The notes below the pieces were generated by a model, which searched no databases, was not told the DNA's origin, and saw only the letters and a list, made by a program, of their open reading frames with translations. DNA of 64,000 nucleotides. Origin: an uncultured Bacillales bacterium (GTDB taxonomy: Bacteria > Bacillota_I > Bacilli_A > RF39 > UBA660). Location: NCBI GenBank assembly GCA_946534345.1, contig CAMNCL010000006.1:50-64049 (forward strand), read 5' to 3'. Below are positions 35,244 to 60,988 of the stretch, piece by piece; positions within the stretch are counted from its first letter, which is position 1, and the number at the start of each line of letters is the position of its first letter. The translations under genes and the position numbers were made by a program.

Positions 35244-36146
35244 TTAATCATCCTTTTTAGCCCTTGGAAAACTATGATAATAAACTTCTTTTAATCTATC
35301 AGTAGTAACATGTGTATAAATTTGTGTAGCTTTTATACTTTCATGTCCTAATAATTTTTGAACTGTTAATAAGTCACAACCTTCATTTAATAAGTGTGTT
35401 GCGAAACTATGTCTAATCATATGAGGAGAAATATTTTTATTAATACCTGTTTGTTTAATTAACTTATCAAGAATAAATCTAACTCCTCTTTCAGTTAATT
35501 CTCCTCCGTTGTTATTTAAAAATAAATAATCACTATTTTTGGTATTTAGAATAATTCTTCCATCACTTAAATATTCATTTAGAGAATCTTCACAATATTC
35601 TCCAAAGTTAACCAATCTCTCTTTATTACCTTTTCCAAGTATCAATATATGTCTACTACTAAAATCAATATCTTTTACTTTAATACTAACAAGTTCTCCT
35701 ACACGTACTCCTGTTGCATATAACATTTCAAGTATAAGTAAATCTCTTTGACCTAAAGCTGTTCTAGTATCTGGAACTTTAAACAATTCTTCTAATTCAT
35801 TATATTCAAAATATCTAGGTAGTTTTTTACTCTTTTTAGGTCCATTCACAAGAGAGAATACATTACTTTTAACATAACCTTCATTAGCTAAAAATTTATA
35901 AAAACCTCTAAGTGAACTTAACTTTCTATCAATAGAAGAATTATTATCTTTCTTAGTATCTTTTAAAAACATTAAATAAAATCTAATATCACTATATTCT
36001 ACTTTTTTAAAATCAAGTGCTTCACTATTTAAATAATTTAAATATTCTAAAACATCATTTTTATAACTACTAATTGTATAGTCTGAATAATTCTTTTGAT
36101 ATTTTAAATAATCTAAATATTTAACTAATTCTTTATTATCTTCCAT
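35244..36146 (-). CDS. xerC: Tyrosine recombinase XerC/CodV type
   Basis: C-terminal HMIRHSFATHLL...LLGHESIKATQIYTHV catalytic motifs. Chromosomal position near topA, as for Bacillus codV. Confidence 0.85.
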   Translation of the reverse strand: MEDNKELVKYLDYLKYQKNYSDYTISSYKNDVLEYLNYLNSEALDFKKVEYSDIRFYLMFLKDTKKDNNSSIDRKLSSLRGFYKFLANEGYVKSNVFSLVNGPKKSKKLPRYFEYNELEELFKVPDTRTALGQRDLLILEMLYATGVRVGELVSIKVKDIDFSSRHILILGKGNKERLVNFGEYCEDSLNEYLSDGRIILNTKNSDYLFLNNNGGELTERGVRFILDKLIKQTGINKNISPHMIRHSFATHLLNEGCDLLTVQKLLGHESIKATQIYTHVTTDRLKEVYYHSFPRAKKDD

Positions 36147-37326
36147 AACCGCCTCTCTCATTATTCTTTGTATCTATCATATTACTATGTATTAAATAAA
36201 AATTATAAGCTTTTTTATAAAGATCTGTTTTATTCTTAGCGGCATTCATTAAAGTAGTATATATAGTTCTTTCATATGAATTTTCTTCTCTTTTTACTGA
36301 AGATGAACGATGATCCATATCACGATAATAGTTTTTCCAATAAGCATTTTTTCTTAATCTTCCATCAAGTAAACTATTTAAGAATTTTCTATCTGCTTCG
36401 TTATATTCTATTCCTGTTTCGTTAGTAACTTTATCAAAATCTATTTCATATCGTTCTTTATTACCCCATTTAACTATTTTATATGGCATATCTAAAATAC
36501 ACTTAGCTACATTTGTAATAAAACGATAATCTATATCATCAGTAATAATATCATATGGAATAGTAAGTTTGTCTGCTAAACGGTTATTCATAATACCTAT
36601 TTTTTTAGCTCTTACTACTTTTTTAGGTGTTTTTTTAAGTAATTTATCAAGATTAGCATAAGTTAAATTAATATAACCAACTTGATTATCAAGTAAAGAT
36701 ATTTGCTCATTAGTATAATTAATCTTTTTATCAAGTAAATGATCAACTTCTCTACGACTCTTTTGTAATTCTTTTTGTTCTCTTAATACTTCTTCACAAT
36801 CTTTATTAACCATCTTATTAAGTTTATTCTCAAATATATCTATAGTAGCTAGAGCATCTCTACCTACAAAATAATTATTACGCATCCAATTTCTATTCTT
36901 ACCAATTCTTACGTAGTTAGAACTTAATGAATTTAAAATTAATTCTTTTAAATTACCATATAAATCAAAGTAATTTCTTCTTATTAATCTTTGTAATTCT
37001 ATATTATTCTGAACTTTATGTAATAATTGATTACATGTATTAGTAACATCTACACTACCATTTCTAGACTTTGAGGCTATAAACTCTAAATCCCCATTAT
37101 TATAAATTAAATCACGATGATAGATCTCTCTTCTTCCTTTATTAACAACATATAAGTCAGCGTCAGGTGAAATATTATATCCTTCATTACGTAAGTAATT
37201 AATAAAATCATCTTTATCTTTAAAATGACTAGTAAATATATCTACTTCTTCTAGATAATTACCGGTATTAATTTTTATTAAATTGAAATTATCATTTTCT
37301 TTTGCGACTATATAAAACTTTGCCAT
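36136..37326 (-). CDS. Hypothetical protein (396 aa)
   Basis: Clean ORF between topA and xerC. No motif recognised. Confidence 0.65.
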   Translation of the reverse strand: MAKFYIVAKENDNFNLIKINTGNYLEEVDIFTSHFKDKDDFINYLRNEGYNISPDADLYVVNKGRREIYHRDLIYNNGDLEFIASKSRNGSVDVTNTCNQLLHKVQNNIELQRLIRRNYFDLYGNLKELILNSLSSNYVRIGKNRNWMRNNYFVGRDALATIDIFENKLNKMVNKDCEEVLREQKELQKSRREVDHLLDKKINYTNEQISLLDNQVGYINLTYANLDKLLKKTPKKVVRAKKIGIMNNRLADKLTIPYDIITDDIDYRFITNVAKCILDMPYKIVKWGNKERYEIDFDKVTNETGIEYNEADRKFLNSLLDGRLRKNAYWKNYYRDMDHRSSSVKREENSYERTIYTTLMNAAKNKTDLYKKAYNFYLIHSNMIDTKNNERGGYGR

Positions 37327-39521: not shown

Positions 39522-40424
39522 TTAATTGTTTTTTTCTAAATATTCTTTTACTGGTCCGTAGCTTCTTCTATGTTCATCTATTATTCCATATTTATTAATT
39601 GCCTCTAAATGCTTCTTTGTAGGATATCCCACATTATTTTTAAAATCATACATTGGATATTTCTTATCTAGTTCATATAACATCTTATCTCTTGTTACTT
39701 TGGCAAGTACACTAGCAGCACTTATCGTAATACTTCTAAGATCTCCTTTAATAATAGGTTTAACAGGAATATCCAAATCTAATTTCATCGCATCAGTTAA
39801 TACATAATCTGGTTTAGGATTACAATTATTAATAGCTTGAATCATAGCTTCTTTAGTCGCTTCATAAATATTAATCTCATCTATTCTTTTCTCACTTACT
39901 ATTCCTATTCCATAAGATATAGCTTGTCTTTTTATTTCTTCAAAAAAGAAGTTTCTTTTCTTTTCACTTAGTTTTTTACTATCAGTTAAACCATCTAAAT
40001 TAAAATCATCAGGCAAGATACAACAAGCCGCAACTACTGGCCCTACTAAAGGACCTCGTCCTACTTCATCTACTCCTCCAATTAATTTATAACCTTCTTC
40101 TTTTAACTTTCTTTCATTCTGATAGGTATCTAGACAATCTAAGTATAATTCTATTTTCTTTTTTAATGCTTTATCATCAGTACTATCTAGTATAGACTCT
40201 AATTTTTGAAAATTATAATCATTTATTTCATCATAATTATCTAATTTATCTACTACCTTCACTATTATTCCAGGAATATTAAAATCTATTAAACTATTAA
40301 CTTCTAGTTCATCACAGTTTCTTTTTATTCCATGACAAACAATACTAGTATCTCCTACTACTATATATTTACTAGAATCAACATTTATCTCTCTTAATTT
40401 TTCAAAAATATCTTTCTTTGTCAT
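39522..40424 (-). CDS. rnhB: Ribonuclease HII
   Basis: GVDEVGRGPLVGPVV catalytic motif, preceded by a ~110-aa N-terminal region. Confidence 0.9.
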   Translation of the reverse strand: MTKKDIFEKLREINVDSSKYIVVGDTSIVCHGIKRNCDELEVNSLIDFNIPGIIVKVVDKLDNYDEINDYNFQKLESILDSTDDKALKKKIELYLDCLDTYQNERKLKEEGYKLIGGVDEVGRGPLVGPVVAACCILPDDFNLDGLTDSKKLSEKKRNFFFEEIKRQAISYGIGIVSEKRIDEINIYEATKEAMIQAINNCNPKPDYVLTDAMKLDLDIPVKPIIKGDLRSITISAASVLAKVTRDKMLYELDKKYPMYDFKNNVGYPTKKHLEAINKYGIIDEHRRSYGPVKEYLEKNN

Positions 40425-40432
40425 TATTACTC

Positions 40433-41143
40433 CTAATTATATGCTTCTAATATAACAACTTCTATCTTACTATATTTACCTTCTTTTAAATAGGTTCTTT
40501 CTTTAACTGTCTTATTTTTCTTAACATCGAATGTGTAATCATCAGAATAATTGATTATTTTACCATTCTCATCATAATATAATAATCCCCATTTTATTGA
40601 TTCTAATTTTTTATTAGTATTATTTTTTAAAGTTATTGAACCAGTTGCTTCATTAAAAGATACCACCTTAATTTTATCTTCACCATAATAATCATTATGA
40701 CTACTGTTATATGTAAGAACAACTTTAACTTTATATGTCTTATATAATTTTTTTAATTCATCACTTACATTTATTTCAACATATGTCTTTTTACCTGATC
40801 CAACATAACTAAAATAATTATCTTGCATTGTAATAGATTCATTATTTTCATCAAAGAATTCAATATATATCTTACCCGTTCCAGCAAAATCATTTTTATT
40901 AATAACTTCTACTAAGATATTTCCATCACTTAAAAGGTAATCTTTTGATTCTACATATTTACCCATTTCTAAATTAACTTTATCTCTATTATCATAATAA
41001 TACTTATCGGCATCAGTCACTTTATCATCACTATGACTATATTTATAATTGTCAATCTCTGCTGCAATTATAACTATTAATAGTTCAACTAAAATAGTAA
41101 CTCCTATTACAATTAAAATAAGTTTAAGATTCTTCTTTATCAT
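40433..41143 (-). CDS. Membrane-anchored hypothetical protein (236 aa)
   Basis: One N-terminal TM, then a beta-rich extracellular region. No motif recognised. Confidence 0.65.
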   Translation of the reverse strand: MIKKNLKLILIVIGVTILVELLIVIIAAEIDNYKYSHSDDKVTDADKYYYDNRDKVNLEMGKYVESKDYLLSDGNILVEVINKNDFAGTGKIYIEFFDENNESITMQDNYFSYVGSGKKTYVEINVSDELKKLYKTYKVKVVLTYNSSHNDYYGEDKIKVVSFNEATGSITLKNNTNKKLESIKWGLLYYDENGKIINYSDDYTFDVKKNKTVKERTYLKEGKYSKIEVVILEAYN

Positions 41144-41204: not shown

Positions 41205-41987
41205 CTATTTGACTATATTCTTTATTTTTTCTTTTTGTTTATTTTCAAAATCTATATAATATTCCCACTTATCACTAGGTATAACTAAACCACGTTTATT
41301 ATAACTTCTACTTATTATATCTGTTAAATTGACATTTAAATAACTAGCTAAAATCTCTCTAAAAATTGGATACTTTTTAATAAACTCTCTACACTCATCA
41401 ATATTATCAAAACTATATAAAGAACTTTCATAAAGTTTATTAGAATTTTGGCAAGTACTATTTAGTGAATGTTCAAAGTCATATAATGGAGCTAATCTAA
41501 TATTACCATTTTTATCTTCTTCAAACATAATATTAACTTCACTACGATCTGCTTGTCCCATAAAAATATCAAGAGCTAACATTTCTAGCATATCTTTACA
41601 TAATTGTTTTTTGTTTTCTTCACTTCTTGCATGCTTTAACATTGATTCAAACCCGTTATTAGCTAATTTTTCGTATTCATTTATATATTTGTAAGTATTG
41701 TCTTTTTCTTTGAAATCAAATGAACCAATTCCAATAGTTGGATTATACTTATCTGTTTTAGATTTAGATAATGTCTTATTAATTTTAAATCTAGTTAATC
41801 CTGCAATAAAATAATGTGTACATCTAATATTTCTAATATTAGCTAATTCTTCACCAATAAATTCAGCATGATTAAAACGTTTAAAATATACTTGTGGTTC
41901 TTTCTTTTCAAAAAAGCCTTTTTTATTATCTCCGTTTACTAACTTAACTGGTGTATCACTAGTTAAACATTCATTGATATATAACAT
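41205..41987 (-). CDS. HipA-C-like kinase domain protein (candidate)
   Basis: LALDIFMGQADRSEVNIMF...RLAPLYDFEHS resembles the HipA catalytic and activation-loop region (GNxDxHxxN ... LAPxYD). No HipB-like gene is adjacent. Confidence 0.5.
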   Translation of the reverse strand: MLYINECLTSDTPVKLVNGDNKKGFFEKKEPQVYFKRFNHAEFIGEELANIRNIRCTHYFIAGLTRFKINKTLSKSKTDKYNPTIGIGSFDFKEKDNTYKYINEYEKLANNGFESMLKHARSEENKKQLCKDMLEMLALDIFMGQADRSEVNIMFEEDKNGNIRLAPLYDFEHSLNSTCQNSNKLYESSLYSFDNIDECREFIKKYPIFREILASYLNVNLTDIISRSYNKRGLVIPSDKWEYYIDFENKQKEKIKNIVK

Positions 41988-42094: not shown

Positions 42095-42118
42095 AGAAAA
42101 CAGGCTATTTAAGCCTGT
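42092..42118 (-). terminator. Intrinsic terminator of rbgA
   Basis: ACAGGC-TTAAATA-GCCTGT followed by TTTTCTTT. The stop codon lies inside the hairpin. Confidence 0.65.
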
Positions 42119-42962
42119 CTAAAGTAATATTTCCTAAGTATCCATTTCTTAAATCTCTAATGATTATCTCACTTACTCTATCATAATCAGTAACTCCTCC
42201 ACGAGATAGTGCTCCTCGTCTTTTACCAATTAAATCGTACGCTTCTATTAAATCATCATCTAATTCTTCTATACCATATCTATCATTTAATCTCTCTGGA
42301 TATAATTCATACATCTTTCTTAAGATAAAACTAGCTATTCCATCGTTATTTAATATCTCTTCTTTAATAGAGGATAATGAAGCTAGTATATGAGCTTGTT
42401 CCTGATCTTCTAATTTAGGCCAAAGTATACCTGGAGAATCTAAAAGTTCTAAATCTTTATTAATTCTTATCCAACTAAGACTCTTAGTAAATCCAGGTTT
42501 ATTACCTACTCCTGCAGCTTTCTTACCAACCAATCTATTAATTAATGTACTCTTGCCTACGTTAGGAGCTCCAACAATTAATATACGAGCAGAACGTTCT
42601 TTCATACCTTTATTTACTCTATCTTTATTAATATCATTCATAATAGATTTACTAATATTAATTAACTCACTTACATTACCATTCATTAGATCACACATAA
42701 CTACTTTATAACCTAAATCTTCATAATGTTTACTAATCTTTTTAGTTTCTTCTTTATCACATAAATCATATTTAGTCATAATTAATACTTTAGGTTTATC
42801 TTTAATTAAATCATCTATATCAGCTAATTTACTACTAAGAGGCATTCTAGCATCTATTACTTCAAATACTATATCAATTAAATTAAGTTTTTCTTTTATC
42901 TCTCTCTTAGTCTTTGCCATATGACCTGGATACCAGTTTATATTAGTTTTATTTTCATTCAT
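42105..42962 (-). CDS. rbgA: Ribosome biogenesis GTPase A (YlqF)
   Basis: MNENKTNINWYPGHMAKTKREI N-terminus and circularly permuted GTPase motifs (NKxD-like TKYD, GAPNVGKST). AGGAG RBS 9 nt before ATG 42962. The track start at 42971 is a TTG. Confidence 0.92.
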   Translation of the reverse strand: MNENKTNINWYPGHMAKTKREIKEKLNLIDIVFEVIDARMPLSSKLADIDDLIKDKPKVLIMTKYDLCDKEETKKISKHYEDLGYKVVMCDLMNGNVSELINISKSIMNDINKDRVNKGMKERSARILIVGAPNVGKSTLINRLVGKKAAGVGNKPGFTKSLSWIRINKDLELLDSPGILWPKLEDQEQAHILASLSSIKEEILNNDGIASFILRKMYELYPERLNDRYGIEELDDDLIEAYDLIGKRRGALSRGGVTDYDRVSEIIIRDLRNGYLGNITLDRLK

Positions 42963-42976
42963 TTGGATCAACTCCT
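42932..42976 (-). repeat. Core repeat copy 0 (the genuine rbgA RBS, ATG and first codons)
   Basis: Minus strand AGGAGTTGATCCAAATGAATGAAAATAAAACTAATATAAACTGGT. Continues into rbgA. Confidence 0.9.
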
Positions 42977-43732
42977 TGTTCTACTCAATATTTTAACAAA
43001 TTTTTTAGGAATTTTTTCATTTACTTTTTCTATGGTTTCATTATTAATTCCATACATTGCTTCAGCCATACTTCCAACTATAGCACAGTTTGTATCTGTA
43101 TCTCCACCCATAAGTAATGTTTTTCGAATAGCATCTTCAAAACTATTTGAATCATATAATGCATATAAACAATTTCCTATAGTTTCTTCACATGTCGTAT
43201 TAAACTTAGTAAATGGAATATATTTAATATCAATATTCATCAATTTAAATATTTCATCTTTTGTATAACCATTTCTAGAATAATATATTATTAATGCCAC
43301 CATAGTAGCAGAGTTAATTGCTTCTTTTGAGTTATGAGAAGGTATAGTTGCAAGCCTTGCATTTTCTATCACTTCTTTTTCATTATCAAACATGTATCCT
43401 ACAGGAGATATTCTCATCATAGCACCATTACCATGACTAGTACCAATTATATTTGATTGGCTCCATTTTACCAAGTTAGGTGAAAATGATGATTTAAAAT
43501 ACGGATTAAAATCAGGGTTATACTCACTATATTCTTGTATGTATTTTCGTAAATAATAATCATAATCTTTATTATTAAGTATCGCATCCAGTGTAGCAAT
43601 AGTTAAAATAGTATCATCACTATAGAAAGCATTATCTTCAATTAAATTATTCATTTGTACTCTATGAACTTTTTTTAATTGATCATATTCATATATACTA
43701 CCTGCTAAATCTCCAACTATAGCTCCATACAT
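42968..43732 (-). CDS. ADP-ribosylglycohydrolase family protein (cassette 1)
   Basis: MYGAIVGDLAGSIYEYD N-terminus and GGDTDTNCAIVGSMAEAMYG motif. Confidence 0.85.
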   Translation of the reverse strand: MYGAIVGDLAGSIYEYDQLKKVHRVQMNNLIEDNAFYSDDTILTIATLDAILNNKDYDYYLRKYIQEYSEYNPDFNPYFKSSFSPNLVKWSQSNIIGTSHGNGAMMRISPVGYMFDNEKEVIENARLATIPSHNSKEAINSATMVALIIYYSRNGYTKDEIFKLMNIDIKYIPFTKFNTTCEETIGNCLYALYDSNSFEDAIRKTLLMGGDTDTNCAIVGSMAEAMYGINNETIEKVNEKIPKKFVKILSRTRS

Positions 43733-43741
43733 ACTATCACC

Positions 43742-43775
43742 TCTTTTTTATCTGGTCTTGACTAAATTGTTATCA
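43742..43775 (-). repeat. Hairpin-type cassette junction, copy A
   Basis: Minus strand TGATAACAATTTAGTCAAGACCAGATAAAAAAGA directly after core copy 1. One mismatch relative to 45558..45591. Together with the end of the core it forms the imperfect hairpin CTGGTTGA...TCAAGACCAG. Confidence 0.8.
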
Positions 43776-43820
43776 ACCAGTTGATATTAGTTTTATTATC
43801 GTTCATTTGGATCAACTCCT
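43776..43820 (-). repeat. Core repeat copy 1
   Basis: 45 nt with 3 mismatches to copy 0. Confidence 0.9.
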
Positions 43821-44212
43821 TTATTATTTACCAATTTTTTTACTTTATTATGACTTTTATTTAAGATTGCATTTAGTTTTCTCTTTAATTCATTACGACT
43901 TAGACTATAATAAAATTCTCCATCACTACATGTTGCAACTTCATAATTTGCCATTTCGTTTATTGGCTTTACAACTATAGGTATTTCTTCATTTTCATTA
44001 ATCATTTCTCTTTTTCTAATTAAGTCACTATACCACCAATCATAAACACTAATTGCATAAGCAATTCCATCATCACCTACGATAGCACAATATTGTCTTG
44101 GATCAGCATCTTCTAAGTCTTCTATATCTATATCATTTGACCAAATGGCACGTAATATTCTATATTCATATATTTCATTTCCATCACAGTCATATCCTAA
44201 TGTATAGTCCAT
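43796..44212 (-). CDS. Hypothetical protein, 138 aa (cassette 2)
   Basis: The first 23 track codons lie in the repeated leader, so I start at ATG 44212 (GAGGTGA RBS): MDYTLGYDCDGNEIYEY... Ends KGVDPNER inside core copy 1. Confidence 0.65.
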   Translation of the reverse strand: MDYTLGYDCDGNEIYEYRILRAIWSNDIDIEDLEDADPRQYCAIVGDDGIAYAISVYDWWYSDLIRKREMINENEEIPIVVKPINEMANYEVATCSDGEFYYSLSRNELKRKLNAILNKSHNKVKKLVNNKGVDPNER

Positions 44213-44408
44213 ACATTCACCTCGTTTTATTAATATAAAATATGTCGGCATATTACAAGCCAGTATTCTAATTCCTCTCAAAAATAAGTATATTTTACCA
44301 TATTTTTTATTATTTTTCTTTGCTTTTTAGTAAAACTTGCAAGAGCTTATTTACTAAAAAGTCCTATTTTATAAGGGTTTAAGTGATGGTCGTCATAAAT
44401 ACAAACCA
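44213..44408 (-). repeat. Long leader repeat, copy L2
   Basis: Alignable end to end with 44948..45152. Shared blocks are TGGTTGG.TTGTATTTATG, CACTTAAACCCTTATAAAA, CTTGCAAGTTTTA, TTTTTGAG.GGAATTA and GAGGTGAAT. Confidence 0.85.
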
Positions 44409-44456
44409 ACCATTGTATTAATTTTCCATTATTTTCATTCATTTGAATCAATTCCT
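44409..44456 (-). repeat. Core repeat copy 2 (diverged)
   Basis: Minus strand AGGAATTGATTCAAATGAATGAAAATAATGGAAAATTAATACAATGGT. Homologous to the core, with substitutions and a 3-nt indel. Confidence 0.75.
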
Positions 44457-44947
44457 TTACTAATAATTTTATTTATATCTTTACTATTTACAAATTTTAA
44501 TTTACTCTTAAATTCTTCTAAACTTTTTAACTTGGATTTTTCTTTTTTATAATATGAATTAACTGTTGAAATATAATATATCCATTGACTAAACACAGGT
44601 GGATGATTGTATCTTTCTTTTCCTAATCTTTGTTTAATCCATCTTTTAGTAACTCTATAATAAGATTTCATTCTTGAAAGTTTAATATAATAAATAATAT
44701 CTGCTTCAACTCTACCTTGCTTAAATTTTTCTCTGCCAACATCTTCAATTATCCATTTTTTATTATTCAAAATGTCTTTAAATATTTTTTGCGCTTCCTC
44801 ATCAGTTCTTTTAATATTTCCATGATCATCATCCCATGACACTTTATCAAGCTCATAATATTTAATATTATACATTTCTGATAATTTGGTTGCAAAAGTT
44901 GTTTTACCACTACCAACAGGACCTATTATATATATTTTATTATACAT
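44435..44947 (-). CDS. P-loop NTPase, adenylate-kinase/topology-modulation-protein-like (cassette 3)
   Basis: MYNKIYIIGPVGSGKTTFATKLS Walker A. Ends KGIDSNE inside core copy 2. ATG 44947 preferred to the GTG start at 44959. Confidence 0.75.
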   Translation of the reverse strand: MYNKIYIIGPVGSGKTTFATKLSEMYNIKYYELDKVSWDDDHGNIKRTDEEAQKIFKDILNNKKWIIEDVGREKFKQGRVEADIIYYIKLSRMKSYYRVTKRWIKQRLGKERYNHPPVFSQWIYYISTVNSYYKKEKSKLKSLEEFKSKLKFVNSKDINKIISKGIDSNE

Positions 44948-45152
44948 AATACTATTCACCTCTTTTTATTAATATTAATATAATGTGTCAGAGTGCTACA
45001 AGTCAGTACCTTAATTCCCCTCAAAAATGAGTATGTTTTAACCTATTTTTTCAAATCATTCTTCTTATTCTTATTAAAACTTGCAAGATCTCAATTCTTA
45101 AAAGCTCCCTTTTTATAAGGGTTTAAGTGATAGTCGCCATAAATACAAGCCA
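44948..45152 (-). repeat. Long leader repeat, copy L3
   Basis: See 44213..44408. Confidence 0.85.
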
Positions 45153-45197
45153 ACCAGTTTATATTAGTTTTATTTTCATTCATTTGGATCAACTCCT
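45153..45197 (-). repeat. Core repeat copy 3
   Basis: Identical to copy 0 over all 45 nt. Confidence 0.92.
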
Positions 45198-45547
45198 TTA
45201 CTTACTAATTCAAATACTTCAAATACTATTTTTGAATTATTATTAAAATCCATATCAATTGATTTAAAAAAATCACAATGAACCTTTGTCCAATAATCTA
45301 ATGATAGATCTCCTTCACCTTCTAATTTAGCACATTCTTCTGTCATTTCATTAAACTTCATTACCTTAAAATCAGTTGTTTTTATTATACATGCCTCTGT
45401 TCCGTCATCATAACAAATAATAGATTCTTCTCCAATTACTGGTAATTTTTCATTATTATCAAGCAATGATGTAGTAGCAGTTTTTTTACCAGTTAAAACT
45501 AATGAAATTAATTCATTATTATTTATTCCAAATTTCCATTTTTCCAA
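45176..45547 (-). CDS. ASCH domain protein (cassette 4)
   Basis: WKFGINNNELISLVLTGKKTATTS is typical of ASCH/YhfF-like proteins. TTG start with GAGGT RBS. Ends KGVDPNE inside core copy 3. Confidence 0.7.
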   Translation of the reverse strand: MEKWKFGINNNELISLVLTGKKTATTSLLDNNEKLPVIGEESIICYDDGTEACIIKTTDFKVMKFNEMTEECAKLEGEGDLSLDYWTKVHCDFFKSIDMDFNNNSKIVFEVFELVSKGVDPNE

Positions 45548-45557
45548 ATCAATTACC

Positions 45558-45591
45558 TCTTTTTTATCTGGTCTTAACTAAATTGTTATCA
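45558..45591 (-). repeat. Hairpin-type cassette junction, copy B
   Basis: Minus strand TGATAACAATTTAGTTAAGACCAGATAAAAAAGA directly after core copy 4. Confidence 0.8.
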
Positions 45592-45619
45592 ACCAGTTTA
45601 TATTAGTTTTATTTTCATT
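45592..45619 (-). repeat. Core repeat copy 4 (truncated distal end of the array)
   Basis: 28 nt, AATGAAAATAAAACTAATATAAACTGGT, identical to copy 0. The AGGAG...CCAAATG part is missing. Confidence 0.85.
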
Positions 45620-45630
45620 ATATATAAAAA

Positions 45631-46095
45631 CTACTTTCTACTAATTTTTTGATAGTTTTCTCTTATAAAATATTCTTCAAAATCTTTATAATTAACTTTA
45701 ATAACTTTTTTAGGTATTAAATCATGATAACATCTATATTGAGTAGTAAATTGATGATTATCTTTAATCATTTCATCACTATTATCAAAAATATAAACGT
45801 AACCACATAAATCTTCTGGTAAATTATCTACTTCAAATATCATTGCGGGTAATTCGCCATTATTATTCATAGAAAATGAATAGTGTTCATTTATTTCTTT
45901 TAATCGCCTACTAAAAGCATAAGCAGCAGCAGTATAAATTGAACTAGTTAAAAACACAGCATTATCCTCATTATTCTTATCTTCATTATCTTTAGATTGT
46001 CTTATTTCTAACTTTTCAACTTCATGTGCTGTTCCATGAAATAAGAATTTTGGATTAAAAATATCTTGTTCTTTATATTCTTCTAATTCAAACAT
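45631..46095 (-). CDS. Hypothetical protein (154 aa)
   Basis: GGGAGAAG RBS before ATG 46095 (MFELEEYKEQ...). No motif recognised. Confidence 0.6.
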   Translation of the reverse strand: MFELEEYKEQDIFNPKFLFHGTAHEVEKLEIRQSKDNEDKNNEDNAVFLTSSIYTAAAYAFSRRLKEINEHYSFSMNNNGELPAMIFEVDNLPEDLCGYVYIFDNSDEMIKDNHQFTTQYRCYHDLIPKKVIKVNYKDFEEYFIRENYQKISRK

Positions 46096-46182
46096 AAATA
46101 TGCTTCTCCCTTTTAATAGTTTATTCTTAGAAATCACTTTCTAACGACTAAATTATAACATAAAAGAGCAGATTACTCTACT

Positions 46183-47244
46183 CTATCTTCTTGAAATACT
46201 ATTGATTATTTCAAAACTATTATCATGATTAAAATATTCTTCTTTATTATTATAAAAACTTATTCCATAAACTGTTTCTCCAATAGTTCCAGCTCTGTAA
46301 CTTATACTACTTTCAAGGAAATATGGCTTTTCTTTTCTCTCATATTCAATTGAATATCCTCGTAAATCTTTATCTAAATAATAAAATGTATCATAAGATG
46401 GTACTGTAAAAGTTGCATATGTTCTAGCAATATAATTTATTTTAATATCATTACTACTAGTAAAAATATTTTGCTTAAAATCTTTGTGATTTTCATAAAA
46501 TTTTAATAAATCAATTGAATCACGAATATTATACTTTTCAAGTAAACTATAAACATCCATCCAAGGAAAAACTGTACTATTAATTCCTAAGTGTTCCATA
46601 TTACCAATATCTATTGGTATACTTCTATTACATACTAATATCATCGCATCAAATGTTTCTTTATCTTCTAATCCTTTTACATATGGTTCACAATCATTCA
46701 CTACAAAACCACTTTTTGCACGATCAGTAACTAATTCAAATTCATCAGGAATATACATATCTAAGTTTTCATCTAAAACTGTCTTATTTGCCAAATTATT
46801 ATTACTAATTTGAACTGTTTTTATATTCTGATTAAATGGAAAAGTATTATTTTCATGAGTAATATTATCTTTATAATAAAAATAGGTAATAAATATTTTA
46901 TATAGTATATAAATAATAATTAATATAATTATAAATATAATAAACTTCTTAATTTTTTTATTTCTTTTCTTATTATTATAGTCAATAGTACTCACAATAT
47001 TTTCTTCTAATTTTTTTTGATAATTATCCTCATTAAGCTTCTCTCCTGAGAGTAATTCATTAATAGATATATCTAATTCTTCACATAAATCATTGATTAT
47101 TGAATAATCTGGCATACTATTACCATTTTCCCATTTAGATATAGTCCTGTTACTTACTCCTAATTTTTCTGCTAATTCTAGTTGACATAGTTTTTTCTCT
47201 TTTCTTTTTTCTTGAATGAACTTTCCAATTTTTTGTTGATTCAT
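46183..47244 (-). CDS. XRE-family HTH protein with TM segment and extracytoplasmic domain
   Basis: IGKFIQEKRKEKKLCQLELAEKLGVSNRTISKWENGNSMP HTH motif, followed by the TM FIIFIIILIIIYILYKIFITYF and a ~230-aa C-domain. Confidence 0.8.
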   Translation of the reverse strand: MNQQKIGKFIQEKRKEKKLCQLELAEKLGVSNRTISKWENGNSMPDYSIINDLCEELDISINELLSGEKLNEDNYQKKLEENIVSTIDYNNKKRNKKIKKFIIFIIILIIIYILYKIFITYFYYKDNITHENNTFPFNQNIKTVQISNNNLANKTVLDENLDMYIPDEFELVTDRAKSGFVVNDCEPYVKGLEDKETFDAMILVCNRSIPIDIGNMEHLGINSTVFPWMDVYSLLEKYNIRDSIDLLKFYENHKDFKQNIFTSSNDIKINYIARTYATFTVPSYDTFYYLDKDLRGYSIEYERKEKPYFLESSISYRAGTIGETVYGISFYNNKEEYFNHDNSFEIINSISRR

Positions 47245-47351: not shown

Positions 47352-47380
47352 AAACAAAAAAGCATCAATAAGATGCTTTT
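47352..47380 (-). terminator. Intrinsic terminator after 47380..48327
   Basis: AGCATC-loop-GATGCT followed by TTTTTGTTTG on the minus strand. Confidence 0.7.
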
Positions 47381-48327
47381 TATTTAACAGCTCTAAAAAT
47401 ATAATAAACTTCTTTATTACTTATTTTTAATTTATTACCACTAACTTTAGTTATTCTACCACCGTATCCACTGCCATGTGCTCCTTCAGCGGCTCTACTA
47501 TTTCCTAAATAAATCCAAACATGACCGCCTTCACCTTTATTTCGGTAATATAGAACATCTCCCCTTCTTAATGAAGATAATTTACCATCATGTGTAATTC
47601 TAGTAAATCCTAATTTAACCATTTGATTTTTAGTATATTCATCTCTACTTGCTCCTGGTAATAATGTAAATGAAAATTTCTTTCCCAATGCTTTAACAAC
47701 ACAAGTTCTAGCAAAGTGACAACAACATGTTCCAGCAGCTACACTTGCATCTTTACTATTTTTAAAATTGGGCCAAAATTTTCTGTAGTCAGCCATAAAC
47801 TGAGGAGTAGAACCTCCCCCATTAAATCTACAATACTTACTTTTGGGAGTTCCTAATGGCCAAGCATAATATTCAGCGGCAGAGGCAATCCTTTCTGCAA
47901 GTTCACCATTTGGATTATAAGCAGCACTTCCACTATCAGTAGATTTTGCACTTCCATATTCATAACCACTAGGATCTGAAATTACTGGTTGAGTGTTTTC
48001 TTGATATGGATTCATATATTTAGAATTTAGTGAAGGCTTACCTATATTTTGATTCCAACACGCACTAACTTCGAATGAATCATTAGCTAGTAACATAAAA
48101 GCATTAACAATTGTTGGTATTAAAAATAATACAAATAATGCAATAAAAGTATTTCTAATTCTCTTTGGAATTTTCTTATCATCAGGATCTTTTACTAACA
48201 TTGAAAAATGAATTAATAAACCTATTATTGCAAGTATTGGTCCAGCAATCCAAATTATATTTAATACATTTTTAAAATAATACAAAAATATTCCTAATGT
48301 TGCATTATTACAATCCATTAATATCAT
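47380..48327 (-). CDS. Membrane-anchored NlpC/P60-superfamily (papain-fold) hydrolase candidate
   Basis: Three N-terminal TM. C-domain carries a Cys cluster (AAGTCCCHFARTC) and GDVLYYRNKGEGGHVWIYLG, resembling the NlpC/P60 His region. Confidence 0.6.
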   Translation of the reverse strand: MILMDCNNATLGIFLYYFKNVLNIIWIAGPILAIIGLLIHFSMLVKDPDDKKIPKRIRNTFIALFVLFLIPTIVNAFMLLANDSFEVSACWNQNIGKPSLNSKYMNPYQENTQPVISDPSGYEYGSAKSTDSGSAAYNPNGELAERIASAAEYYAWPLGTPKSKYCRFNGGGSTPQFMADYRKFWPNFKNSKDASVAAGTCCCHFARTCVVKALGKKFSFTLLPGASRDEYTKNQMVKLGFTRITHDGKLSSLRRGDVLYYRNKGEGGHVWIYLGNSRAAEGAHGSGYGGRITKVSGNKLKISNKEVYYIFRAVK

Positions 48328-52659: not shown

Positions 52660-53763
52660 TTACTTTTTAGAACCTTGTGGTACTTGTTGTGTAATACAGT
52701 GAATATTACCTCCACCTAGTAAGATTTCACGAGCATATACTGTTTCGATCTTTCTATCTGGGAATAATTCTTGTAATAATTCAACTGCTTTTTTATCGTT
52801 AGGATCATCAAATACAGGTAGAGCAATGAATCCATTTCCTGTATAGAAGTTAACATAGCTAGCAGCTAAACGATCTCCCTCTTGTCTTGGAAGAGTTCCA
52901 TCAACTGCATCTACTCCTTCACTCTCCTCTTTAGTAATTAAAATTGGAGCTGGAGTATACATCTTATGAACTTTGATTTTTCTTCCCTTTGCATCTGTTT
53001 CACTCTCTAAATATTTAAGAGCTTCCATACTTCTTTCATATTGAGGATCATTTTCATCATCTGTCCAAGCAAGTATAACTTCTCCAGGTTTAACGAAATT
53101 ACACATATTATCTACATGTCCATTTGTTTCATCATTATAAATTCCTCTAGGAATCCATAATACTTTTTCACAATTTAGATACTCACATAGAGTATTACCA
53201 ATTTCTTCTTTAGTCATATGTGAATTACGTCCTTCTGATAATAGACATTCTTCAGTAACCATTACTGTACCTTCTCCATCAACATGAATAGATCCACCTT
53301 CTAGAATGAAGTCATCTAATCTATATCTATCAGCAGCTTCTAATTCACACATTTTTTGAGCGATTTTATCATCTGAATCCCATGGGAAGTATAATCCATC
53401 TACTAATCCTCCCCAGGCATTAAATGTCCAATCTACTCCTCTTAATTTACCTTTGTCATTAACAACAAAAGTAGCTCCACAATCTCTTACCCAAGAATCA
53501 TCGTTAGACATTTCTACTACACGAACATAATCAGGTAACATATTACGAGCATTAGAATATTGAGCTTTAGACACAATCATTGTCATTTGTTCATATTTAC
53601 CAATAATACTAGCTACTTCAGTAAATACTTTTTGAGCAGGTTTTGCGCCTAATCTCCAGTTATCTGGTCTCTCAGGCCAGATCATATAACAACCTCTATG
53701 AGGTTCAAATTCTCCAGGCATTCTGAATCCGTCTGCCTTAGGAGTACTATCTAATCTCTTCAA
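52660..53763 (-). CDS. aguA: Agmatine deiminase
   Basis: 367 aa. PAD_porph-type C-terminus [11 protein letters not shown] with catalytic Cys. Cluster context. Confidence 0.9.
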
Positions 53764-53823
53764 ATTAACCCTTCTTTCTTTTTGTATTATTAGACAAAGG
53801 AGGTATTAAACCTCCTAGTCTTT

Positions 53824-55239
53824 TTATGCCTTTTTAGTTTTAATTCTAGCAACTAAAATTTCTTCAATTATAAATGATAATACAACACCTGCGATTAGAG
53901 GGATATTATCTTGAAGATATTCAGCACTGAAATCACCAAAGATTGTAAATACAACTCCAGCAATTAAAATTACGAATGGCACAATAGCAGCAACTTTTTC
54001 CATTACACCACTAACTGGCATTCTATAAGGTCTCTTCTTATCTGCATCTACTTTTCTAAGTTTTAAGAAAGCTAGGAACATTGGAATGTATCCAACTAAT
54101 AATGTAATCCAGCTTAAGCAGAAGAATAATGCGAATCCTGCACCAAAGTCTTCTGAAACTAAGTTTGCAATTATACCAAATACTACAATTACTGAAGCAA
54201 CAATACCATTGATATAAGCAGCTGTAGCTGGTACACCTTCACTATTTGTTTTAGCAAATATTTTTGGCATAGAACCATCTTCTGCAGCATATTTAGCTAC
54301 TTCATTAACTCCAAATGACCATGAAGCAATATTTGCGATGAATGTATAAATAAACATAAATCCAGCAATTACAACAATTACTTGCATAGTAGCAGGACTT
54401 AATCCAACTGCTGTGAATAATGCTTTTAATACTTCTACAACATTTTCAGGATCCATATTTCCAACTACATCAGGGCTTAGTGCAATATTAAATCCTGTAG
54501 CAGGTAAAACATAGAAAATAGCCATTAATAATCCACCAAAGATTAACGCTTTAGGAATATCTTTCTTTGGATTTTCCATATCATCTACCCAAGTACCAAC
54601 TACTTCGAATCCCATAAAGTTAAATAGGATAATTGAAATAAATGGTAATCCTGTATCAATATTTAATGATAAATCTGGAAGTAAATCTTTAAAACTAGTA
54701 ATTGGATTAGCACTTTCTCCAGTCTTAAGAACTGTATAAATTCCTAAACAACCAATTCCTAATAGTAATAATACTTTAAATGCTGTTCCTAAATTAACAA
54801 CATATTTACTCTCACCAATTCTTTGAGTACTTAATAGTGTTACTACCCATACATATAGTAATTGTAATACTAATAGTGCAATAACACTTAGTTCAATATT
54901 GAACATACCAGCAACTATATCAGTTACTGCAACTGCTAGTGAAGCAATCCATAATGGGAAGTTAACCCAATAATTCCATGCTACACGTCCAGCCCATTTA
55001 GGTCCGAATGCACGTTTTACCCAATCATACATTCCACCTTCACTTGGATAAGTAGTTCCAAGTTCAGCAGTAATCATACCATATGGAACACAGAAACATA
55101 ATAGTAAGAAAATCCACCAGAAATATTGTGAGTTACCAATAGCTGCTGTAGGCATAACTGATTCACAAACTAAAGTTAAACATACAGTTCCTAGTATGGC
55201 GTCCATCAATTTAAATTTTTTCTTTGACTTTTCAGCCAT
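53824..55239 (-). CDS. aguD: APC-family amino acid/polyamine permease (agmatine:putrescine antiporter candidate)
   Basis: 471 aa, 12-13 TM. Lies between the carbamoyltransferase and agmatine deiminase genes. Confidence 0.75.
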   Translation of the reverse strand: MAEKSKKKFKLMDAILGTVCLTLVCESVMPTAAIGNSQYFWWIFLLLCFCVPYGMITAELGTTYPSEGGMYDWVKRAFGPKWAGRVAWNYWVNFPLWIASLAVAVTDIVAGMFNIELSVIALLVLQLLYVWVVTLLSTQRIGESKYVVNLGTAFKVLLLLGIGCLGIYTVLKTGESANPITSFKDLLPDLSLNIDTGLPFISIILFNFMGFEVVGTWVDDMENPKKDIPKALIFGGLLMAIFYVLPATGFNIALSPDVVGNMDPENVVEVLKALFTAVGLSPATMQVIVVIAGFMFIYTFIANIASWSFGVNEVAKYAAEDGSMPKIFAKTNSEGVPATAAYINGIVASVIVVFGIIANLVSEDFGAGFALFFCLSWITLLVGYIPMFLAFLKLRKVDADKKRPYRMPVSGVMEKVAAIVPFVILIAGVVFTIFGDFSAEYLQDNIPLIAGVVLSFIIEEILVARIKTKKA

Positions 55240-55263
55240 CTTTCTTTCACTCCTTTAATTAAA

Positions 55264-56247
55264 TTACAATCCTAGATTCTTCTTGCAAATTTCAATTGTT
55301 AAATCTTTTTGTCCCATTAAATATACAAGTAATCCACGCATCGCAGTAAGTCTGTTTTCTGCTTCATCGAAACAGATTGAAACTTCTGGATCATCCATGA
55401 TTTCATCAGTAACTTCTTCACCACGAGTTGCAGGTAAACAGTGCATAAATTTAACATTTGGTGCACATTTGTTTATCATTTCTCTATTTACTTGATATTT
55501 AGGATAGAATATTTTCATTCTTTCATCTTTTGGTAATTCAGATTCATATAATCCATACCAAACATCCGTATATACAAAGTCAGCACCTGTTAAAGCTTCA
55601 GTCTCATCATCAGTTACAAGATAAGTTCCTCCACTTTCTTTACAGTTAGCTTCTAAGATATCTAAATAATCTCCTCTTAGTTGGAAATCTTTTGGTCCAT
55701 AATGTACAAAATGACCACCCATCTTTGTAATCATCATACCAAGTGATGCACATACTTGAGTACAATCTCCTACAAAGACTACTTTTAAGTCTTCAACTTT
55801 CTTACCTTCTGGCATATGTTCAAAAATAGTAATGATATCTCCCATTTCTTGAGTTGGGTGATTCCAATCACTCATACCATTAAGTACTGGAACAGTTGAA
55901 TACTGTGCAAGCTCTTGAACAGTTTTGTGTTCAATAACTCTAGCCATCAAAACATCAACAAGTCTTGATAAAACGATTGAAGTATCCTTCATAGATTCAT
56001 GTTTACCAAGTTGAATTTGTCCTGGTGCTAAGTATTGAGCATGTCCACCTAGTTGTGTCATAGCAGTTTCAAAAGACACACGAGTTCTAGTAGATGCTTG
56101 TTCAAAAATCATTCCTAGTGTCTTATGATAAAGTACATTAAGAGCATATCCGGCTTTAATATTCTTCTTGATAATTAAGCTAAGCCTAATGATATCTAAT
56201 AACTCCTGCTTTGTATAATCTTGTGTTGAAATGTAATCTCTCTTCAT
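55264..56247 (-). CDS. ptcA: Putrescine carbamoyltransferase (OTCase family)
   Basis: [13 protein letters not shown] and [11 protein letters not shown] motifs. The OTC SMG loop is replaced by DVWYGLYE. Lies in an agmatine deiminase cluster. Confidence 0.7.
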
Positions 56248-56320
56248 TCTCTACCTCCTATTATAATTTTAGAACTTTATAGTGAAAAATTCAACAAAAA
56301 AGTAAAATATGTATCATATC

Positions 56321-57322
56321 TTACTTCATTTTAGCCCATAGTCTGTCAAATCTTTTTATATTTTCTCCTACATTCTTAATATAACTACCATTATTTAGTA
56401 TTTCTTTTAATTCTTCATCTGAATAATTACTAGTATTTTTATTAGTAGAAATATATGGATAATCATCTATTATTTTTTGACATACTTCGTCTCTTAATAA
56501 ATAATCTATAAACTTATAGGCATTATCTACATTAGTAGATCCTTTAGTAATAACATAATTATCCATACTAAGAGCATAACCACTTCTAGGATAAACAATT
56601 ACAATATTTGGATTATGATCTTTAGCTAGAATTGCTTCTGCATTCCAAAGTACTCCAATGTTAGTTTCATTTGTCATTAGGAATGACTTAGGTGAATCAC
56701 TATCAAAAGCTTTTATATTATCTTTAAGACTACTATAGAATTCATATGCTTCTTCTAAATGTTCATCATTATAATCATTGATATCATAGCCTAGAGCTTG
56801 TAGGAAAGCACCTATTGTTATTCTCTCATCATCTAGTAAAACAATATCGTTTTTGTAATCTTCACGAACTAAGTCTTTATAATCGTAAATATCATTAACA
56901 TTTTCTCTATTATAAGCAATTACACTAGTAGCGAGTAAAAATGGTAATGAATAACTATTAGTCTTATCATATGATTGTTTTAAAAATACTTTATCAATAT
57001 TTTTATAAGTAGATAATCTACTTATATCTAGCTTTTGTAACATATTTTTATTAATCATTAATTCAACCATATAGTCACTAGGAAAAACTACATCATATGT
57101 ACCATCTTTAGATGAAGATAACTTAGCTAATAATTCTTCATTAGATGAATATGTACCATAATTAACTTTAATACCTGTTTCTTTTTCAAAGTCTTTTATA
57201 ACTTCATCAGGAATATATGATGACCAGTTTAATACATTTACTACTTGTTTATTTTTATTACTAGTACAACCTGTTAAAAGTAATAGACAAACAAATATAA
57301 TTAATAATTTATACTTCTTCAT
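56321..57322 (-). CDS. potD: Spermidine/putrescine ABC transporter substrate-binding lipoprotein
   Basis: Lipobox LLLTGC and a PotD-like fold. Last gene of the potABCD order. Confidence 0.85.
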   Translation of the reverse strand: MKKYKLLIIFVCLLLLTGCTSNKNKQVVNVLNWSSYIPDEVIKDFEKETGIKVNYGTYSSNEELLAKLSSSKDGTYDVVFPSDYMVELMINKNMLQKLDISRLSTYKNIDKVFLKQSYDKTNSYSLPFLLATSVIAYNRENVNDIYDYKDLVREDYKNDIVLLDDERITIGAFLQALGYDINDYNDEHLEEAYEFYSSLKDNIKAFDSDSPKSFLMTNETNIGVLWNAEAILAKDHNPNIVIVYPRSGYALSMDNYVITKGSTNVDNAYKFIDYLLRDEVCQKIIDDYPYISTNKNTSNYSDEELKEILNNGSYIKNVGENIKRFDRLWAKMK

Positions 57323-58110
57323 TAATATCCCCTCCTAGCAATTTTACGAGATTGATATATAGCTGAAGTAGTTAAAATAATTATAGTTGCGACTAATAAT
57401 AATGTTGATAAAGCATTAACATCAGGTGTAATACCTGTTTTTATAATACTATAAATCTGTAATGGTAATGTATTACTACCAGGTCCAGCTGTAAAATAAC
57501 TAATTACAACATCATCCATTGATAGAGTTAAGGCAAGTGTTGCTCCACTGATAACTCCTGGCATAATTAATGGAAGAGTTACTTTAGTAAAGACATTAAA
57601 TCTACTAGCTCCTAAATCATAAGCTGCTTCTTCATATTCTTTTGGTAATAAATTTAAAGTAGATCTTACACTTGTAATTACAAATGGAATTGAAAAAGCA
57701 ATATGAGAAATAATTAAACTAAGCATACCTAATTGTAGATTAGCTATTGTATAAACACTAAGTAGTGATATACCTAATACAATCTCTGGAATAACTATTG
57801 GTATATAAATAAGACCATTAACTATTTTCTTAAATGGGAAATTATATTTATATAATCCAATTGCAGATATAGTACCAATAATAGTAGATGTAACAGTAGA
57901 TACTCCAGCAATTATTAATGTATTTCTAAATGCTTCTAATAAATCAGTATTATGGAATAATGTCTTATACCAATCAAAAGTAAATCCTGTAAAAACAACA
58001 TTCATACGTGATTTATTAAATGAATAAACAACTAAGACGATTATTGGAGCATATAAGAAGATAAATGTAAGTACAATTGTTAAATTCTTTATAAATTTAC
58101 CTTTATTCAT
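57322..58110 (-). CDS. potC: Spermidine/putrescine ABC transporter permease
   Basis: 6 TM with EAAYDLGASRFNVFTKVTLP EAA loop. Confidence 0.85.
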   Translation of the reverse strand: MNKGKFIKNLTIVLTFIFLYAPIIVLVVYSFNKSRMNVVFTGFTFDWYKTLFHNTDLLEAFRNTLIIAGVSTVTSTIIGTISAIGLYKYNFPFKKIVNGLIYIPIVIPEIVLGISLLSVYTIANLQLGMLSLIISHIAFSIPFVITSVRSTLNLLPKEYEEAAYDLGASRFNVFTKVTLPLIMPGVISGATLALTLSMDDVVISYFTAGPGSNTLPLQIYSIIKTGITPDVNALSTLLLVATIIILTTSAIYQSRKIARRGY

Positions 58111-60655: not shown

Positions 60656-60988
60656 TCACTTCCTTGAGATTGTTTTTTCTAAATAAATTCTCTTTTCAAA
60701 TCCACCTTTAATTAATTTCTTCTCTTGAGCACTTTCAATTACCTCAGAAAAATGTGCATCTTCTAAACTAGCTATAGCTTTTAAAACTTCTAGTACATCT
60801 CCTAATTCTTCAATTAATTCTTCTCTAGAAGTTGCATTTTCTACTTCATTGCATTCTTCTTTTAGTTTTCTAAATAATTCACGACGGAATTCTTCTTGTC
60901 CCATGCTTCTATATATAGGTTTTTCATGTTGTCTTTTAATAATTTCAGGTACATTATCCCTTACTAATTTGTCATATATTTTTACCAT
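60656..60988 (-). CDS. MazG-like nucleoside triphosphate pyrophosphohydrolase (small all-alpha type)
   Basis: IYDKLVRDNVPEII ... EELGDVLEVLKAIA EExxE/D metal-binding pattern, 110 aa. Confidence 0.7.
   Translation of the reverse strand: MVKIYDKLVRDNVPEIIKRQHEKPIYRSMGQEEFRRELFRKLKEECNEVENATSREELIEELGDVLEVLKAIASLEDAHFSEVIESAQEKKLIKGGFEKRIYLEKTISRK

Follow-up and report, generated by a model that had tools for sequence, protein, structure and literature searches.

The staphylococcal and enterococcal cassette chromosome elements SCCmec, SCC and ECC are inserted at the end of the conserved gene rlmH by the large serine recombinases (LSRs) CcrAB or CcrC, and tandem elements, some of them without a recombinase and dependent on one supplied in trans, lie there between direct repeats of the target. 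Successive insertions at one att site, with internal att copies and recombinase-less elements, are also known from the tandem accretion of integrative and conjugative elements (ICEs), integrative and mobilisable elements (IMEs) and cis-mobilisable elements (CIMEs), e.g. in the ICESt1 family, and the rAID arrays of Bacteroidales are orphan immunity genes separated by repeats beside a tyrosine recombinase. Integrons, to our knowledge, are not found in Bacillota. A further insertion site is the 5′ end of rbgA, the gene for ribosome-biogenesis GTPase A: ICE Tn5253/Tn5252-type elements have their attB, characterised by experiment, just past its Trp codon, and they duplicate 17–84 bp and leave the coding sequence restored (PMC8571831; PMC4701971), with attL equal to attB and attR equal to attTn in Tn5253 (PMC8571831). 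Tyrosine-integrase ICEs with rbgA specificity have been catalogued in streptococci (PMC4701971). Here we analysed 64,000 nt of a metagenome scaffold from an uncultured Bacillales bacterium (contig CAMNCL010000006.1; this whole stretch is referred to as the window), in which four single-gene cassettes stand in tandem directly upstream of rbgA. On balance, we favour the reading that this array is a chromosomal gene-cassette platform formed by repeated site-specific integration at the first codons of rbgA, probably driven by an LSR.

The array is organized around the ribosome-binding-site and start segment of rbgA, which we call R; the junctions after ...TGGT, where R runs into a leader (X) or into rbgA, are denoted R-X and R-rbgA. 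On the minus strand, the order of features begins after an XRE-type gene and ends with R0 fused to rbgA:

46165..46184, minus strand, intrinsic-terminator-like hairpin after the XRE-type gene
46111..46157 (approximate), minus strand, R5, a decayed sixth remnant after the XRE-type gene
45631..46095, minus strand, weak ADP-ribosyltransferase-like ORF (Pfam ART-PolyVal 2e-4, DUF3990 1.3e-3, both below cutoff)
45592..45619, minus strand, R4, 28-nt core only, without the Shine–Dalgarno part; leader X follows
45153..45591, minus strand, cassette 1 (439 nt): short leader X 45548-45591, ASCH ORF 45176-45547, R3
45153..45197, minus strand, R3, identical to R0
44409..45152, minus strand, cassette 2: long leader 44948-45152, P-loop AAA_18 ORF 44435-44947, R2
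44409..44456, minus strand, R2, diverged copy with a 3-nt indel
43776..44408, minus strand, cassette 3: long leader 44213-44408, 138-aa ORF 43796-44212, R1
43776..43820, minus strand, R1, 3 mismatches; runs into leader X (TGATAAC...)
42932..43775, minus strand, cassette 4 (844 nt): short leader X 43733-43775, ADP-ribosylglycohydrolase ORF 42968-43732, R0
42932..42976, minus strand, R0: Shine–Dalgarno, ATG and codons 1-10 (MNENKTNINW) of rbgA
42105..42962, minus strand, rbgA (Pfam MMR_HSR1 1.3e-19, RsgA_GTPase)
42098-42120, predicted terminator after rbgA

The five minus-strand copies R0 to R4 had been listed in a preliminary description of this DNA, and pattern matches and self-comparison agree on their positions. 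Four matches to the 27-nt core at ≤3 mismatches were found in the window against 0.00 expected (100 shuffles), and four to the Shine–Dalgarno half of R against 0.03 expected in shuffles. The degrees of identity reported for the copies were also reproduced, with R0 equal to R3 over 46 nt, R4 identical over 28 nt, R1 carrying its 3 mismatches and R2 diverged (66% identity ungapped; partial HMM match, E 2.5e-4). In the 64 kb, no R copy was found beyond R0–R4 and the decayed R5, which retains a promoter-like TGTTATAAT and the Shine–Dalgarno and start half, its 3′ core being lost, and which aligns with the R flank behind the same XRE-type gene in a related locus (L048). R0 runs on as ATCCAGGTCATATGG (YPGHM) in rbgA, whose first 31 nt are part of R0, and this is the attB-equivalent junction. 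The breakpoint after ...AAYTGGT is found in all copies and, judged from sequence, the crossover lies at or beside it, just past the Trp codon of the conserved W(Y/F)PGHM motif. The earlier statement that homology always ends after AACTGGT holds against rbgA but not among the cassette copies, which share leader sequence further on. Beyond this point, the R copies that do not enter rbgA run into one of two leader families, of ~40 nt and ~200 nt: the shared stretch is another ~40 nt at 93% for copies 4 and 1 and ~200 nt at ~75% for copies 3 and 2, the latter being the leaders of cassettes 2 and 3, whose architecture recurs in many loci.

A cassette unit thus consists of leader X, one ORF and R, i.e. 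the rbgA Shine–Dalgarno sequence, start codon and ~10 codons. Every inter-R interval holds a single sizeable co-oriented ORF, exactly as the preliminary description had counted, and Pfam backs its assignments for cassette 4 (ADP_ribosyl_GH, 2e-35), cassette 2 (AAA_18, 5.9e-8) and cassette 1 (ASCH, 9.6e-22), whereas the 138-aa ORF of cassette 3 has no Pfam or NCBIfam match; a relative of it occurs as another cassette, L143.2. Three of the cassette ORFs stop within the repeat with the tail ..KG(V/I)D(P/S)NE(R), and the ADP-ribosylglycohydrolase ORF stops there in another frame. The leader of cassette 2 contains X, a hairpin CCCTTATAAAAAGGG (45107-45121) and a promoter-like TTGCAA segment, and may include a degenerate internal junction at ~44985-45022, in which an r element is followed by a second X-like copy (X′).

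We compared the window with related loci (L-numbers) from uncultured Bacilli of gut and rumen, whose labels vary (“Tenericutes”, “Erysipelotrichaceae” or Candidatus Faecimonas), using 80 species-level loci anchored on rbgA and 174 R-bearing loci; a metagenome scan for the R-X junction gave at least 120 loci. The median length of 181 cassettes from these relatives is 834 nt. Their longest ORF lies on the array strand in 177/181, and the ORF stops are concentrated 23–46 nt ahead of the R end. The conserved X segment 3′ of R has the consensus TGATnTCnATTTAnTCAA.. and is followed in many cassettes by a small hairpin, CCTTAT-AAAA-ATAAGG (variants CCCAT/ATGGG and CCCTT/AAGGG), and then by a promoter-like segment, ATCTTGCA... 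Long leaders close with the degenerate Shine–Dalgarno-like r and then X′, and short leaders resemble X/X′ fusion products. A long leader may accordingly represent a fused ORF-less, promoter-bearing unit.

The arrangement has a strict polarity. None of the 174 loci has R copies in mixed orientation; of the 355 copies, 72 run into rbgA and 241 into TG.... Around rbgA in the species-level set, 36 extra R copies were found in 339 kb of upstream sequence, and none in 694 kb downstream or on the opposite strand. At least one extra R is present in 24 of the 44 loci with >1.5 kb of upstream sequence. The interval from the rplS/lepB-like genes (assigned by eye from translations) to rbgA ranges from empty (L059) to >10 co-oriented, mostly unique genes.

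The most direct evidence for mobility is a pair of strains (L206 and L208) that share 12,108 nt at 100% identity up to ...ATCAACTGGT and diverge exactly after ...AACTGGT. Past the breakpoint, L206 goes on with ATCCGGGTCATATGG (rbgA), and L208 enters a canonical leader of X, hairpin and promoter, followed by further genes. The preliminary description had predicted that single cassettes would be present in some genomes and absent from others, with breakpoints in the core, and such polymorphism is found here. Cassettes also recur across distant genomes. The ASCH cassette (window 45150-45619) is 97% identical over 470 nt, R to R, to L095 1518-1987, although the rbgA genes of the two loci share only 72% nucleotide and 61% protein identity and the cassettes on either side are not the same. 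For the ADP-ribosylglycohydrolase cassette, the counterpart is L128 5078-5888 (92% identity over 811 nt), which has a long leader where the window has a short one, and the cassettes L040.5 and L087.1 are 95.5% identical at different array positions and distances from rbgA. These comparisons show that cassettes move singly between genomes.

The R segment itself behaves in the same way. Across 74 species, identity over the last 45 nt up to the breakpoint shows no correlation with identity over the 150 nt that follow (r = -0.14). R is at least 43/45 identical in 10/74 species whose next 150 nt average 78% identity, and R0 matches the rbgA starts of L043, L066 and L070 at 45/45, with identity falling to ~74% over the following 150 nt; L003, the closest relative, shows 90% downstream identity yet matches R at only 20/45. 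Several R alleles are in circulation, encoding a short N-terminus (MNENKTNINW) or a long one (e.g. MSNEEKSFSKTSINW), and they are found both at cassette ends and at the rbgA starts of different species. The rbgA 5′ segment is therefore a mosaic, exchanged piece. Taken with the cassette comparisons, this upholds the earlier interpretation of the repeats as the footprint of repeated site-specific insertion at one site, with the rbgA 5′ end regenerated each time.

Two observations on strain-level breaks and element context stand beside these. At ~11032 in L207 compared with L206, a RhuM gene is interrupted: the two are 99.7% identical up to ...ACTAATTGG, and past this break, which follows a TTGG motif, L207 carries Mob_Pre relaxase and IS3-type transposase genes. 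L130 (1-7325) has two R copies and a Nudix cassette, then a MobV-type relaxase and a 650-aa serine recombinase (opposite strand), and continues with a tRNA gene and an LTA-synthase-like gene in place of rbgA, so that it is either an IME inserted at the site or an array borne on one. Displaced R copies also open short ORFs of 14–31 aa (MNENKTNINWL...) that gene callers annotate as genes (window 45107-45197 and 44361-44456; L001 7780-7872 and 8521-8616). In the R frame, X reads W-L-[IVA]-[TLC]-[IV]..., and its conservation looks coding-like.

The sole recurrent recombinase in the related loci is an LSR with Resolvase, Recombinase and Zn_ribbon_recom domains, present in ~21 loci and co-oriented in all but one. 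Its gene directly abuts rbgA in five loci (L003, L027, L031, L032 and L075). The LSR genes of L032 and L075 extend at their 3′ ends over the rbgA Shine–Dalgarno and start region, as cassette ORFs do (L032 ends in ..KGSEINE), and in L041 and L165 the LSR unit opens with R-X and a leader, as other cassettes do. This ~406-aa family has 7,370 homologues at E < 1e-30. In 4/4 sampled members the gene lies 0–3 genes upstream of rbgA, and the genes downstream of rbgA in these four samples are all different (SerS; YceD/L32; RNase III; RNase HII/topA). Decayed Zn-ribbon fragments lie further upstream of the rbgA-linked LSR. This LSR comes nearest to TnpX, SprA, XisF and Ccr, all matched under the family cutoffs, and the NCBIfam CcrA/B/C models give 64–92 bits against cutoffs of 700–900. 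The earlier remark that no dedicated integrase is nearby is correct for the window, where the nearest recombinase is indeed a housekeeping-type XerC (35244-36161, 6.8 kb from the array), but not for the system, as related arrays often have an LSR gene upstream of rbgA. The rbgA-linked LSR also very often adjoins a Bro-N protein, a candidate directionality or regulatory factor, and RhuM genes recur (L206-L221, e.g. L212 7125-9221 and L216 6107-8245). As for mobile forms, blastn against sequenced plasmids and phages gave no match, a viral-contig scan with the LSR gave one distant match only, and the only IMG/VR contig with the core (L083) carries three LSR genes and two R copies.

How the locus relates to known systems can now be stated. 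The S. pneumoniae rbgA core is presumably ATTCAATGGTT, with the break at nt 20, to be compared with ...AAYTGGT here. Tn5253/Tn5252-type elements of streptococci and enterococci and the array use the same gene and position, duplicate the upstream region and first codons, leave the native copy displaced on the left and place the element-borne copy next to rbgA. The preliminary description knew of no described system of this kind, which was mistaken as far as the site is concerned, since the Tn5253 reports give the same rbgA position as attB (PMC8571831; PMC4701971). The elements differ in that Tn5253-type ICEs are conjugative, ~65 kb long and usually single, with a tyrosine integrase, whereas the array consists of tandem single-ORF cassettes of 0.4–0.9 kb (0.44–0.84 kb in the window), its site is linked to a serine recombinase family, and the search for a tyrosine integrase found none. 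The ICESt1-type accretions share the successive site-specific insertions at one site that leave internal copies, but are decayed multi-gene elements in few copies, whereas the rbgA cassettes are uniform single-gene units that share leaders and make up a large pool. SCC elements resemble the array in having an LSR tied to one housekeeping gene (for the array, in relatives) and tandem units with direct target repeats, recombinase-less units included. They occupy the 3′ end of rlmH with elements of 3–60 kb, in contrast to single genes at the rbgA 5′ end and a 45-nt repeat that includes the translation start, and the LSRs of the rbgA arrays score far under the Ccr equivalog cutoffs. The array would thus represent serine-recombinase cassette capture, closest to SCC elements. 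No rbgA cassette array or serine-recombinase integron-like system was found in the literature searched, and the uniform single-ORF miniaturisation with shared leaders, the integron-like cargo diversity and the linkage of an LSR family to rbgA appear to be undescribed.

In the mechanism we propose, a dedicated family of ~406-aa LSRs, encoded in relatives by cassette-like units immediately upstream of rbgA, would catalyse insertion. An inserted cassette shifts the resident R upstream, with X now behind it, and sets its own R before rbgA, so that the essential gene keeps a functional start. The R-X junctions would be attP-like and the R-rbgA junction attB-like, new cassettes would enter beside rbgA, and excision would release circles. 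The four cassettes of the window, which has no LSR, would be non-autonomous and either mobilisable in trans or currently frozen.

Several points weigh against this mechanism. We infer it from genetic linkage only. In the window, XerC was the only recombinase found, and the search for LSR genes or remnants was negative even with E values up to 5; an LSR lies within reach in only ~10% of arrays. Classical LSR attP and attB sites have little in common past the central dinucleotide, unlike the junctions here, which share one whole arm (R), and inspection of the sequence revealed no clear dyad symmetry at the breakpoint. The 45 nt of near-identity could also support RecA-dependent exchange. Finally, in L015 (7934-8784) ASCH and P-loop genes are adjacent in the window order at 72–82% nucleotide identity with no R or leader between them, which indicates that linkers can be lost, or gained or inserted independently of the ORFs.

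The last of these loci also bears on the possibility that the array is a static relic, built in an ancestor by the same mechanism and now fixed and decaying, since the conserved order of the pair suggests its vertical descent. The lack of a recombinase in the window, the diverged R2, shortened R4 and decayed R5 point in the same direction, and the array is known from one sample only: exact-protein look-ups of rbgA and the ASCH protein for array variants turned up nothing but the source scaffold and an identical fragment of 2 kb. However, R0 and R3 still agree at all 46 nt, and distant genomes contain 92–97% identical copies of two of the four cassettes, pointing to recent transfer. We consider the relic explanation unlikely overall, while the array of the window may be inert now.

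Homologous recombination alone, in which R or R plus leader serves as portable homology for RecA exchange after DNA uptake with no dedicated recombinase, is improbable as the full explanation, although RecA-mediated exchange via the 45-nt repeat is a viable contributor. R is near-identical across species over these 45 nt and the leaders supply 40–200 nt more homology, most arrays, the window included, are without a recombinase, and short leaders look like X/X′ deletion products of long ones. What this explanation does not account for is the junction, which is constant at TGGT even across R alleles of the short and long N-terminal types, or the strict orientation of copies that lie strictly upstream. 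A single crossover with a random circular fragment would give no precise, homologous X ends, and the LSR family is linked specifically to the rbgA site.

A tyrosine recombinase acting in trans, either a Tn5252-type integrase elsewhere in the genome or XerC on a dif-like core, is distinctly less probable. Its appeal lies in the streptococcal tyrosine-integrase ICEs that use the same rbgA position as attB (PMC8571831; PMC4701971). In addition, the breakpoints are consistent with a 7-bp overlap region at whose edge identity stops, XerC is encoded 6.8 kb away, and the core TAATATAAACT agrees by eye with the XerD arm of the Firmicute dif at 9/11 positions, though in AT-rich DNA and with a poor XerC arm. 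Xer/dif modules (IMEX, pdif) have a 28-bp XerC-6-XerD site at their boundaries; the R sites are in direct orientation. An XerC-profile search of ORFs ≥120 aa in ~200 loci and the window, of limited sensitivity, found no tyrosine recombinase besides the syntenic XerC, and Phage_integrase is absent as a recurrent family among 118 large-ORF families. XerC lies in its conserved topA-neighbourhood position, which we take to be the usual one in the Bacillus-type gene order. An assembly artefact of collapsed or chimeric joins at the short repeat can practically be dismissed: the repeat does disturb assemblies, as 32/80 contigs (among L003-L082) end ≤1 kb upstream of the rbgA start, making it a repeat-induced, systematic break point in the clade, yet the same architecture occurs in >170 independent contigs from many assemblers and samples, an independent JGI contig has the exact ADP-ribosylglycohydrolase-R0-rbgA junction, and an intact ORF reads into the repeat in each interval.

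With site-specific integration as the preferred explanation, we turn to what the cassettes carry. The 145 single-ORF cassette proteins fall into 108 families. By Pfam, they include GNAT (15), NUDIX (7), HD (7), HAD (5), Peptidase_S51 (4), ASCH (4), AAA_18 (4) and Bro-N (3) proteins, with two each of class A beta-lactamase, ADP_ribosyl_GH, histidine phosphatase, dUTPase_2, methyltransferases and others. DHFR-, peptide-deformylase-, VanY- and APH-like proteins were recognized by eye from translations, APH being confirmed by Pfam among larger ORFs. The cargo appears to consist mostly of small-molecule- and nucleotide-modifying enzymes and to resemble chromosomal-integron cargo rather than toxin/immunity pairs. 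Acquired immunity genes had been suggested as the content; this is not specifically supported by a census dominated by GNAT, Nudix, HD and HAD enzymes, and the immunity-gene hypothesis is not favoured. The rAID arrays similarly hold small acquired genes between repeats in gut bacteria, and differ in that the rbgA cargo is enzymatic and no such tyrosine recombinase was found. The ADP-ribosyltransferase-like ORF at 45631-46095 is probably an older cassette, and its family (c40) is R-bounded in L040 and L066; the presence of this ORF with the ADP-ribosylglycohydrolase (42968-43732) in one array could reflect a writer/eraser pair, or coincidence.

Between the terminators at 46165-46184 and 42098-42120 no further intrinsic terminator is predicted, and the cassettes are therefore probably co-transcribed with rbgA as one transcription unit. 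A promoter scan was uninformative (39 sites against 47 expected in DNA of 26% GC), and an Rfam search of 41-48 kb at permissive thresholds found nothing relevant. Single-stranded DNA folds of the R-X regions gave z-scores of -1.8 to +0.9 with small local hairpins only, and attC-like folding was not significant.

The likeness to integrons drawn in the preliminary description stands for cassette behaviour: the cassettes are co-oriented, mostly single-ORF, extremely diverse with GNAT-rich cargo and individually mobile, they are inserted beside a fixed site, read-through expression is probable and ORF-less promoter-bearing units occur. It fails on the defining features, as the array is without IntI and its boundaries are a conserved direct sequence repeat instead of structure-defined attC hairpins. 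The platform also lies inside the initiation region of an essential gene, the hosts are Bacillota, and some leaders have promoter-like segments, so the cassettes resemble the mostly promoterless ones of integrons only in part. It is possible, and we propose it tentatively, that the system is a serine-recombinase functional analogue of the integron in gut and rumen Bacilli, i.e. a gene capture and expression platform in the rbgA initiation region in which the ~406-aa LSR inserts and excises single-ORF cassettes (>100 families sampled) with R-X as attP and R-rbgA as attB, in which case integration and excision would be the same reaction.

Downstream of rbgA, RNase HII and topA follow as in relatives, the RNase HII protein (39522-40424) having an N-terminal extension of ~115 aa. 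Two extra genes lie between rbgA and rnhB, encoding a 260-aa protein (41205-41987) with weak HipA_C/PI3-PI4-kinase similarity and a 236-aa membrane protein (40433-41143) with a weak DUF5780 match. Only some relatives have the family of the 260-aa protein (c11), which means that the region downstream of rbgA varies too. Upstream of the array, one protein (47380-48327) combines a T4SS-pilin-like N-terminus with an NlpC/P60 domain, and a second NlpC/P60 protein, a surface protein with DUF11, lies further upstream at 62056-63939; both may be remnants of a conjugative element. Co-oriented with the array is an agmatine/putrescine-type cluster (52660-60027) comprising an agmatine deiminase (PAD_porph), an amino-acid permease, a carbamoyltransferase and a PotABCD-like ABC transporter. 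Beyond it lie MazG-like (60656-60988), DUF2441, cyclophilin-like and nitroreductase genes, which are cargo-like with no detectable R.

The array accounts for the systematic metagenome assembly break point at rbgA, and compact natural att sites together with small serine recombinases are possible genome-engineering tools. The cargo pool looks like a resistome or a metabolite-repair toolbox. Little is understood of the exchange of single genes among Gram-positive gut bacteria, and this locus represents cassette-level gene capture in a large uncultured clade.

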